From assembly GCA_963752155.1 (NCBI GenBank), contig CAVVXH010000006.1, positions 217,809-281,808 of the forward strand: DNA of 64,000 bases, in the 5' to 3' direction. Origin of the DNA: an uncultured Parachlamydiaceae bacterium. Lineage in GTDB: Bacteria; Chlamydiota; Chlamydiia; Chlamydiales; Parachlamydiaceae. The notes beneath the pieces are model-generated. The model saw only the letters and a list, made by a program, of their open reading frames with translations, made no database searches and was not told the DNA's origin. Both the position numbers and the translations under genes were made by a program. Positions 5,152 through 5,648 of this stretch are shown one piece after another (the first letter of the stretch is position 1; the number at the start of each line of letters is the position of its first letter).

Positions 5152-5648
5152 AGATGCTGCGATATTAGGGTATAAAGTATAGGAAAAATTAAACGCTAAG
5201 CGAGACAGTTGCCTGCGGCGCCCCCTATCGGGAAATAACAGATTTTTAAAGCGCCTTGCCATTGGTGCCTGACCTGATATTCTGACATTTGCCTACAATG
5301 ATAACGTAACCTCCCAGGAGGGCAAATGTCAGAATATCAGGTCTGGAACCAAGGCTAAACGTTACCTCTCAGAATTTAGTATCTTGTTATTAATTGAAAA
5401 CGACGCTTTTTTCAGTTGCGTAAATCTTGGGGGTAACGTTCCAGCCTTGGTTCCAGACCTGACATTCTGACATTTGCCCTTTAGGAAGCAATGTTATCGC
5501 ATCGGCAAATGTCAGAATATCAGGTCAGGCACCAATGGCAAGGCGCGAACTTGTTATTTAGGAGGCATTAGAGTAGGGGCGGAGATTAACCCGCCCCTAC
5601 TCTAATGCCTTTGTGTTTAATTTTTCCTATACTTTAATACCCCTAATT
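5152..5648 (+). repeat. Family A nested-palindromic modular element, full copy A1 (MITE-like, non-coding)
   Basis: Terminal inverted repeats ATTAGGGTATAAAGTATAGGAAAAATTAAAC / GTTTAATTTTTCCTATACTTTAATACCCCTAAT. Two hairpins with arms CCTGA(C/T)ATTCTGACATTTGCC / GGCAAATGTCAGAATATCAGG. Long-range arms GCGCCTTGCCATTGGTGCCTGACC / GGTCAGGCACCAATGGCAAGGCGC. An extra ~20-bp hairpin lies at 5564-5610. Confidence 0.9.

Follow-up and report, generated by a model that had tools for sequence, protein, structure and literature searches.

Four copies of a nested palindrome in intergenic DNA

The subject of this analysis is a non-coding palindromic repeat, here called Family A, found in a 64,000-nucleotide stretch of contig CAVVXH010000006.1 from an uncultured Parachlamydiaceae bacterium (assembly GCA_963752155.1, positions 217,809 to 281,808; this whole stretch is referred to below as the window, and coordinates are counted from its first letter). 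Four copies were located, bearing the quoted sequences where an earlier note on this DNA had placed them: three are near-complete (A1, A2 and A4) and one is a half copy (A3), all are intergenic, and each starts 0-96 nt past a stop codon. The neighbouring genes are those that the note had named, encoding a Zn-dependent alcohol dehydrogenase (adh), RecF (recF, directly after dnaN) and AlgH/YqgE (DUF179), together with an OTU gene that is a marginal match, at 22.9 bits vs a cut-off of 23.3. By its gene content (SET-domain, Sel1 and OTU proteins) and by cluster look-ups the window belongs to a Parachlamydiaceae-like genome. A repeat search pairs 5148-5648, 18300-18829, 56197-56440 and 61838-62245 at 78-99% identity, in the orientations that the note had assigned, and the identity from copy to copy is 90-99%; the repeat is wider than had been stated, as it includes a longer outer inverted repeat and a distal tail. 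In addition to the four copies, a fifth fragment absent from the earlier note, a solo outer terminal inverted repeat (TIR), lies at 13835-13852.

A four-copy alignment combined with a module search gave the order, read on the plus strand of A1, as distal tail, outer inverted repeat, S, alpha, centre, beta, S' and again outer inverted repeat. The outer inverted repeat extends to (AAAAAG)NTGCTGCGATAT..GGGTATAAAGTATAGGAAAAATTAAAC and measures ~45 nt, the ~65-nt distal tail is common to the copies at ~70% identity (alignment and direct reading), and the centre is bounded by AACGTTACC / GGTAACGTT. The modules are as follows.

Copy A1, 5100-5655, plus strand: near-complete, alpha then beta
A1 distal tail, ~5100-5147
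A1 outer inverted repeat, first, 5148-5194: contains GTATAGGAAAAATTAAAC at 5177-5194
A1 S, 5200-5240
A1 alpha unit, 5251-5355
A1 centre, 5356-5443
A1 beta unit, 5444-5546
A1 variant S', including a 20-bp hairpin, 5547-5610
A1 outer inverted repeat, second, 5615-5647: overlaps the adh stop codon, 5647-5649
Copy A2, 18308-18875, minus strand: inverted
A2 shortened outer end with the TIR deleted, 18313-18325
A2 S, 18326-18367
A2 beta unit, 18378-18480
A2 centre, 18481-18622: extra palindrome with 9-nt arrays (GGACAGCAA type), ~18499-18605
A2 alpha unit, 18623-18727
A2 S', 18738-18777
A2 outer inverted repeat, 18783-18830
A2 distal tail, 18831-18875: contains a 16-bp hairpin rich in AT
Copy A3, 56197-56455, minus strand: half copy, beta half missing, cut off after CTTGGGGGTA
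A3 centre, 56197-56277
A3 alpha unit, 56278-56382
A3 S', 56393-56433
A3 outer TIR, rearranged and flipped, 56434-56455
Copy A4, 61790-62268, plus strand: alpha then beta
A4 degenerate distal tail, ~61790-61829
A4 shortened outer end, 61830-61859: TIR at 61842-61859
A4 S, 61865-61905
A4 alpha unit, 61916-62019
A4 centre, 62020-62114
A4 beta unit, 62115-62217
A4 variant S', 62228-62247
A4 outer end remnant GAAGTATCGTCACAGC, TIR deleted, 62253-62268
Solo outer-TIR remnant TGTGTTTAATTTTTCCTA, 13835-13852, plus strand: 18/18 identical to the right ends of A1 and A2, between divergent genes

Every copy is damaged: one outer TIR has been lost in each of A2 and A4, S' is a variant in A1 and A4, and A3 is without its beta half. 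Direct repeats are absent at the ends of A1, A2 and A4, the outer inverted repeat is present, and the true termini are not fixed by empty sites; relatives of the yqgE locus compared for such sites had DNA too diverged and a different gene order. The only open reading frames (ORFs) inside the copies are of 55 aa or less, none of them conserved between copies, and a tblastn search of the window with a REP-associated tyrosine transposase (RAYT; REP, repetitive extragenic palindrome) was empty. The description of Family A as a non-coding, multi-copy, modular nested palindrome without a transposase of its own is supported. A short ORF in P1'/S' that begins MARRFK and resembles the MARR start of the transposase was discarded as a coincidence, since its reading direction is away from the arm, its frame shifts from one copy to the next, and the similarity ends after 12 nt. 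The extra palindrome in the A2 centre has kin at 34714-34835 and 36780-36855 and is a nested insertion of a different palindromic repeat family; these two relatives, palindromes of GGACRRCAA-type 9-nt arrays, sit downstream of tandem TPR-protein paralogues.

Hairpin doublets and their arms

The core of Family A is built from arms of the form ATTGGTGCCTGA / CTTGGTTCCAGA + CCTGAYATTCTGACATTTGCC, of which the window holds 14; the basic arm of ~35 nt reads (C)ATTGGTGCCTGA or CCTTGGTTCCAGA, followed by CCTGAYATTCTGACATTTGCC. The hairpin arms quoted in the earlier note were recovered likewise, the 21-nt arm GGCAAATGTCAGAATRTCAGG occurring 14 times in the window at no more than one mismatch, with none expected in 100 shuffles. 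The alpha unit consists of two arms around a 27-nt loop, with a P1 tail ahead of the first arm and a P2 tail behind the second; the beta unit has alpha's arms inverted around a 25-nt loop. There are seven doublets with 25-27-nt spacers, all intergenic, as is characteristic of REPINs (REP doublets forming hairpins). A1, A2 and A4 share the arrangement P1-arm > loop < arm-P2, centre, P2-arm > loop < arm-P1, which is like that of bacterial interspersed mosaic elements (BIMEs). The arms carry neither a GTAG tag nor a self-complementary stem, the marks of a classical REP. As a separate observation, promoter-like TTGCCA-16-TATTCT sites in the P1 arms, matching at 9/12 positions, face inward.

Between copies, alpha units are 93-98% identical and beta units 98-99%, as compared with 86-89% between alpha and beta; when both are written from P1 to P2 their arms are identical and all of the difference falls in the loops, which are ~55-60% alike. 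The shell, that is, S and the outer inverted repeat, diverges between copies to a similar degree as the core. Because alpha and beta are less alike than are alpha units or beta units among themselves, and shell and core diverge alike, the composite must predate the present copies and has been duplicated as one piece. On this pattern of identity, it was assembled once and then copied whole at least four times.

The arms match terminal repeats of Y1 transposase genes

RAYT-like genes flanked by long TIRs, not by REPs, are known as TIRYT genes in TIRtron loci (Di Nocera et al. 2013, PMC3733652), and a DnaA_C-like C-terminus assigns a protein to TnpA-REP subclass 2.1, which equals TIRYT and Group 1 (Quentin et al. 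2018, PMC6006769). In one related metagenomic locus (L041), an ORF of 181 aa with ..CAAATGTCAGAATGTCAGGCCTGACACCAATT at both sides encodes a truncated IS200-like Y1 transposase (Pfam Y1_Tnp PF01797, E = 2e-15). Its full-length homologues of ~312 aa combine Y1_Tnp with Bac_DnaA_C (PF01797 + PF08299 on most), with the HuH motif present as HIH and with Y-x-x-x-NP; the motifs NHIHL and YIHLNP are visible in their sequences, and the DnaA C-terminal region is also matched in NCBIfam. Some of them were named "REP element-mobilizing transposase RayT" by JGI, and they score 59-71 bits vs a cut-off of 80 for NCBIfam REP_Tyr_transpos.

Genomic contexts were compared for seven homologues, picked by protein similarity alone and all from other samples (P0013, P0014, P0017, P0059, P0061, P0082 and P0085). 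At six of the seven loci a ~35-nt repeat, consensus AATTGGGGTCAGG-CCTGACATTCTGACATTTG, stands on both sides of the gene in inverted orientation. Its upstream copy is 40-234 nt from the start codon, and its downstream copy is within ~40 nt of the stop codon or overlaps it. Both flanks of each gene share one repeat variant, and the repeat co-varies with the protein, as seen in the cores of the flanking repeats:

L051: CCTGACATTCTGACATTT, identical to the window's 18-mer
L045: CCTGGCATTCGGACATTT
L053: CCTGGCATTCGGGCATTT
L056: CCTGACAGTCTGACATTC
L048: CCTGAGTTCCTGAGTCTT

To relate these repeats to the window we used a sequence-only model, R1, built from 20 repeats, none of them from the window. 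R1 recovers exactly the 14 window arms at E = 2e-7 to 0.013, covering model positions 4/5-36 of 38, and the next-best match in the window has E = 0.8. The loci L045, L048, L051, L053 and L056 entered R1 independently of any window-derived pattern. The arms recovered are:

A1: 5260-5292 plus, 5322-5353 minus, 5446-5477 plus, 5505-5537 minus
A2: 18387-18419 plus, 18447-18478 minus, 18625-18656 plus, 18686-18718 minus
A3: 56280-56311 plus, 56341-56373 minus
A4: 61925-61957 plus, 61986-62017 minus, 62117-62148 plus, 62176-62208 minus

The Family A repeat therefore matches inverted repeats that flank Y1 (HUH) genes in related loci, and the proteins encoded there have what defines the RAYT/TIRYT group, namely a Y1_Tnp fold, HuH, Y-x-x-x-NP and a C-terminal DnaA_C/helix-turn-helix (HTH) domain. 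By this match, the arms are homologous to transposase-flanking TIRs, a relationship that the earlier note had missed; and since they are, each hairpin is a REPIN-like doublet of two TIRs, i.e., a transposase locus without its gene.

Scanning metagenomes with the arm pattern returned 36 loci, most of which were dismissed as single chance matches to 18 specified bases; the true relatives are only L010, L012, L018, L026/L041 and L042. Among representative-genome contigs a single locus was found, in a Parachlamydiaceae metagenome-assembled genome with simple doublets that sit in the same kind of place past stop codons. Single doublets of the same family occur in L001, L012 and L042, intergenic and on Parachlamydiaceae-like contigs. 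The viral contig scan with the arm pattern gave nothing, and the full A2 copy had no match in plasmid and phage collections by distant blastn.

Some further observations were made on these loci. In Ga0207062_1214 (L041 1-700, L026 1800-2836) the transposase is truncated to 181 aa with loss of the DnaA_C domain, the gene is bounded by two repeats in direct, not inverted, orientation, and ahead of each repeat stands the same stretch of ~45 nt from the interior of a 230-nt doublet; from this arrangement, it seems that the repeat has disrupted its own gene copy. AATTGG-type short tandem repeats (AATTGGTGTC, AAATTGGAAATTGG, AATTGGGGTCA), which reiterate part of the outer end of the TIR in tandem, are stacked outside the TIRs beside the arms at L051 4953-5060, L041 2750-2830 and 3040-3075, and L012 7355-7390. 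The direct repeats CTGACATT are a putative target of the DnaA_C domain. AAA-ATPase genes (ATPase_2 / AAA_14) adjoin the repeat in the window (18901-20313, after A2), in L012 (7445-8641) and in L041 (3166-4524), an adjacency that may be a coincidence or a preferred neighbourhood.

A composite element, proposed to be mobilised in trans

The best explanation of these data, and one that we consider likely, is that Family A is a composite, non-autonomous REP/REPIN/BIME-like repeat derived from TIRs of the TIRYT type (RAYT Group 1 / subclass 2.1) in a chlamydial host. Two ~35-nt arms facing each other across a 25-27-nt spacer give a hairpin doublet, a miniature transposase locus minus the gene, and two old, diverged doublets (alpha and beta), inverted around a variable centre and wrapped by S/S' and the ~45-nt outer inverted repeat, form a nested palindrome of ~0.55 kb. 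This palindrome was assembled once and has since been copied in one piece to intergenic sites that closely follow stop codons. The element would be mobilised in trans by a Y1 transposase of subclass 2.1, with its gene elsewhere in the genome, that acts on the hairpins in single-stranded DNA and leaves no target-site duplication. Such action on single-stranded DNA hairpins is established for IS608 and for E. coli TnpA-REP. Y1 transposition fits the window, as no target-site duplication is visible at any end. Arm sequence would be preserved because only recognisable copies get copied, while the loops drift; effects on transcripts, such as 3' end protection or pausing, would be by-products, as for REP/BIME; and the copies may act as sites of recombination or breakage, the half copy A3 lying at a synteny break.

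Several points weigh against this explanation. A cut at the outermost arms would move only the ~300 nt of 5251-5546, and this leaves out S and the outer inverted repeat; as these travel with the core, the ends in use may belong to the shell. The window arms lack GGGGWSAS (GGTGCCTG, GGTTCCAG), a motif of the outer part of the TIR that is present as GGGGTCAG in L010, L012, L041, L045, L053 and L056 and replaced at the transposase flanks of L051 and L048 by GGTGTCAG and GGTGCCAG. Missing from the window arms, too, is the short GTCAGG/CCTGAC palindrome found beside transposase genes, and to judge by these losses the arms may have diverged or may no longer be recognised. Three source loci of R1 (L010, L012 and L041) had been fetched by a window-derived pattern and are not independent. 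No RAYT gene lies in the 64 kb window by tblastn, and the context look-ups of the seven homologues led to relatives from other samples only, with no cognate gene of the window genome among them, so that mobilisation in this genome is unproven; flanks reading ...TTGGTKCCWGACCTGAYATTCTGACATTTGCC are what we would expect of the cognate gene. We know of no biochemistry for subclass 2.1 enzymes (see also PMC6006769).

That S and the outer inverted repeat have been copied along with the core, and show an identity similar to it, raises a different possibility, namely that a shell-driven miniature inverted-repeat transposable element (MITE) is at work, in which the ~45-nt outer inverted repeat (..GCTGCGATAT..GTATAGGAAAAATTAAAC) of an unrelated, probably DDE-type insertion sequence (IS) moves the 0.55 kb and the RAYT-type doublets are passengers once inserted centrally. 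The solo outer TIR at 13835-13852 is in keeping with this, and nested insertion is seen for another palindrome in the A2 centre. On the other hand, no target-site duplication appears at any copy, because the inverted repeat runs on into the flanks, no IS or transposase with such ends was found in the window or the fetched loci, and no empty shell devoid of the core was seen. There is also published precedent for REP dimers within long palindromes, also without free target palindromes (PMC3733652). Taken together, we consider a shell-driven MITE unlikely.

An extended form of the composite-repeat explanation is also conceivable, in which the dimer of doublets plus shell is a higher-order replicator copied by a Group 1 / subclass 2.1 RAYT, a class not so far considered to maintain REPIN populations. 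The replicator would be abundant genome-wide in an obligate intracellular chlamydial lineage, where it might have been co-opted to insulate co-directional genes, or to provide a 3'-end structure between them, in a fixed orientation, and also to drive genome rearrangement; this we regard as a long shot.

Folding, orientation and effects on transcripts

The long-range pairings quoted in the earlier note (GCGCCTTGCCATTGGTGCCTGACC/complement and GGTCTGGAACCAAGGC/complement) are exact in A1, A2 and A4. The multi-way junction that it had drawn from them is very stable but is not the minimum-energy structure of the RNA, which is one long rod in which alpha pairs with beta; forcing the local hairpins of the junction costs 27-31 kcal/mol. 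The RNA fold has -295.9 kcal/mol on the plus strand vs -297.5 kcal/mol on the minus strand (z ~ -25), i.e., the strands fold equally well, and the DNA fold has -171.6 kcal/mol (z -23.5). In nascent RNA or in exposed single-stranded DNA, the local hairpins would nevertheless form first.

Such stability, together with the position of the copies, could be taken to mean that Family A is an RNA module selected by the host, a giant hairpin that ends or stabilises the upstream mRNA as a 3' untranslated region (UTR), terminator or insulator and whose fixed orientation reflects that role. Placement at the 3' ends of coding sequences, as claimed in the earlier note, holds for all copies, and A1, A2 and A4 lie between co-directional genes; these three could, however, just as well be said to lie ahead of the gene that follows them. 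The claim that the element always reads in the same direction relative to the upstream gene is literally true, the beta unit being stop-codon-proximal for adh, recF and the OTU gene (all three informative, complete copies), but agreement among three copies has a chance probability of 0.25. In the alpha hairpin of A2, one joint change of two positions (C>T with G>A) leaves a local pair intact, and REP/BIME repeats are known to influence mRNA stability and termination (PMC3733652). Set against this, neither A1 nor A2 shows a stem with a T-tract behind it on the sense strand: the only terminator-like site, on the plus strand at 5563-5610, runs antisense to adh, and none was detected in A2, so an intrinsic (Rho-independent) terminator was rejected. 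Further, neither strand folds better than the other, at polymorphic Y/R positions C.A mismatches on the sense strand are as frequent as G.U wobbles, the stop-codon-proximal end is the most variable part of the element, and it is as sequence, by their match to transposase ends, that the arms are kept across genomes while the loops drift. We thus find the co-transcribed 3' UTR or terminator module proposed earlier not supported as the primary nature of Family A, and a host-selected RNA module very unlikely; by analogy with related repeats, an effect on transcripts is likely as a by-product.

Searches for other functional classes gave little. With Rfam 15 there was no match in the window at the gathering threshold, only generic long-hairpin (miRNA precursor) matches far below threshold on both strands, and no tRNA or tmRNA gene was found in the window. 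An integron attC site was excluded, as the neighbours are dispersed housekeeping genes (recF, adh and yqgE), the window has no integrase or cassette array, and the element is ~5x the size of attC. A replication-strand bias was likewise dismissed: the cumulative GC skew falls monotonically, as in a single replichore, yet both orientations of the element occur.

Synteny break at A3 and abundance of the family

In two groups of relatives the gene order is yqgE-ssb-pepA (L003 10571-10716, L004 9688-9943). In the window (56102-56471) mlaD-yqgE is kept and the order breaks exactly at the half copy A3, with ssb and pepA absent from the whole 64 kb. This suggests breakage or recombination at the palindrome, since the gene order changes exactly there.

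Given that A3 coincides with a rearrangement, one may ask whether Family A consists of immobile fossils, relics spread and reshaped by homologous recombination and segmental duplication only, with neither ongoing transposition nor function. The damage at one end of each copy (TIR deletions in A2 and A4, the missing half of A3, the replaced S' of A1) and the deviation of the arms from the transposase-proximal consensus would agree with such an origin. However, A1 and A3 are 99% identical over 242 nt, which with the 98-99% identity of the beta units points to recent copying or gene conversion, and the flanks are unrelated, so the copies are not segmental duplications; we judge a purely fossil state to be quite unlikely.

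The same organism has also been assembled independently from short reads (Logan ERR11630394), and this assembly ends inside A2 and ~40 nt into A1. Breaks of this kind are expected of a multi-copy repeat, and for that reason Family A is probably abundant, as the earlier note had supposed.

Relation to known repeat systems

Placed next to the TIRYT/TIRtron loci, the present repeats share related proteins with Y1_Tnp and a DnaA_C-like HTH, a gene flanked by long inverted repeats, and dispersal as intergenic dimers and clusters. Many, though not all, TIRYT TIRs share GGGGWSAS, and some TIRs form moderately abundant dispersed families of dimers or clusters (PMC3733652); several of the related loci begin their repeat with GGGGTCAG, which fits that motif, whereas the window arms have lost it. 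The usual location of REP-type repeats is likewise past stop codons, between co-directional or convergent genes (PMC3733652). Apart from the motif, Family A differs in its host phylum, Chlamydiae, in having its doublets fixed in a 0.55 kb nested palindrome copied as a unit, and in a far higher density: 14 arms per 64 kb, vs an average of ~12 flanking 16-mers per replicon for Group 1 (Bertels et al. 2017, PMC5581495). A survey found no REP-like structures beside subclass 2.1 genes (PMC6006769), and our literature search returned no paper that ties such repeats to Chlamydiae.

Like REPINs (Bertels and Rainey 2011, PMC3116915), the doublets consist of two inverted, transposase-recognised repeats with a short spacer that form a hairpin, and they are non-autonomous and intergenic, with the transposase gene itself flanked by the repeat. 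They differ from REPINs in that the arms are 35-nt TIRs vs imperfect palindromes of 20-25 nt tagged with GTAG, the transposase is of another subclass, and the replicating unit in the window is seemingly a doublet dimer plus shell. The REP dimers of Anabaena variabilis (TATAGGA...TCCTATA) and Halothiobacillus neapolitanus also lie centrally in a longer palindrome, and long palindromes with REP dimers in them have never been found without the dimers (PMC3733652). The outer palindrome of Family A also ends TATAGGA / TCCTATA, a shared heptamer that is possibly a coincidence; host phylum, repeat family and size differ.

Bacterial MITEs (Correia/NEMIS, ERIC, RUP, Nezha) are, like Family A, small, non-coding, TIR-bounded and intergenic, form strong hairpins and can affect neighbouring transcripts; they are DDE-derived and have target-site duplications, whereas none is seen for Family A, whose arms match Y1 transposase ends. 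In the BIMEs of E. coli, palindromic units of the Y and Z types are combined into mosaics through fixed linker motifs. Family A resembles them in its alternating arms (> < > <) of two types (with P1- and P2-type tails), its conserved linkers (alpha loop, beta loop and centre) and its location downstream of genes, and differs in being much larger, a near-perfect overall palindrome, with extra outer palindromic layers.

Among long-lived mobile DNA that bacteria inherit vertically, RAYT-REPIN systems are the best-studied case, so far documented mainly for Group 2 and 3 RAYTs in Proteobacteria, and dispersed partner repeats of Group 1 / subclass 2.1, with its DnaA_C-like HTH, are scarcely documented. 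The present data tie these transposases to dispersed hairpin doublets in environmental chlamydiae and provide a case in which doublets have become fixed parts of a larger nested palindrome, with copying of the whole as one unit. No new kind of system is revealed: the kind, REPIN/BIME-like, is known, and what is unusual is the nested, unit-copied architecture. If abundant genome-wide, the family would explain assembly and synteny breaks in these symbiont genomes and would offer a defined substrate for the first biochemistry of a subclass 2.1 enzyme.

Other repeats and genes in the window

An unrelated palindromic repeat, 'Family B', is present at 45458-45754 and 48790-49063, with ~107-nt arms that are 92-96% complementary and an 80-83-nt spacer. 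The pair brackets a SET-domain gene (45875-46666) and a 642-aa ORF without a Pfam match, a layout that looks like a composite or a cassette. At 25997-26310, between two co-directional minus-strand genes, 13 tandem 9-nt repeats (AACGATAAR) face ~9 inverted ones (YTTATCGTT) across a spacer of ~65-130 nt, which makes the palindrome iteron-like; TTATC is common to the 9-mer and to DnaA boxes, a likeness that may be relevant to the DnaA_C-type domain of the transposase. A long hairpin at 11305-11395 (TTATTCCTCCTCTGTGATCTCTGTGGTA ... TACCACAGAGATCACAGAG..AGGAGGAATAA) lies between convergent genes, and Logan contig L002 begins just after it. Finally, three tandem paralogues of ~2.1 kb (594, 592 and 595 aa), with weak TPR matches and 67-91% DNA identity, occupy 32914-38921, and a 954-aa Sel1-repeat protein with five to seven internal repeats of 213 nt (71 aa) is encoded at 22930-25794.

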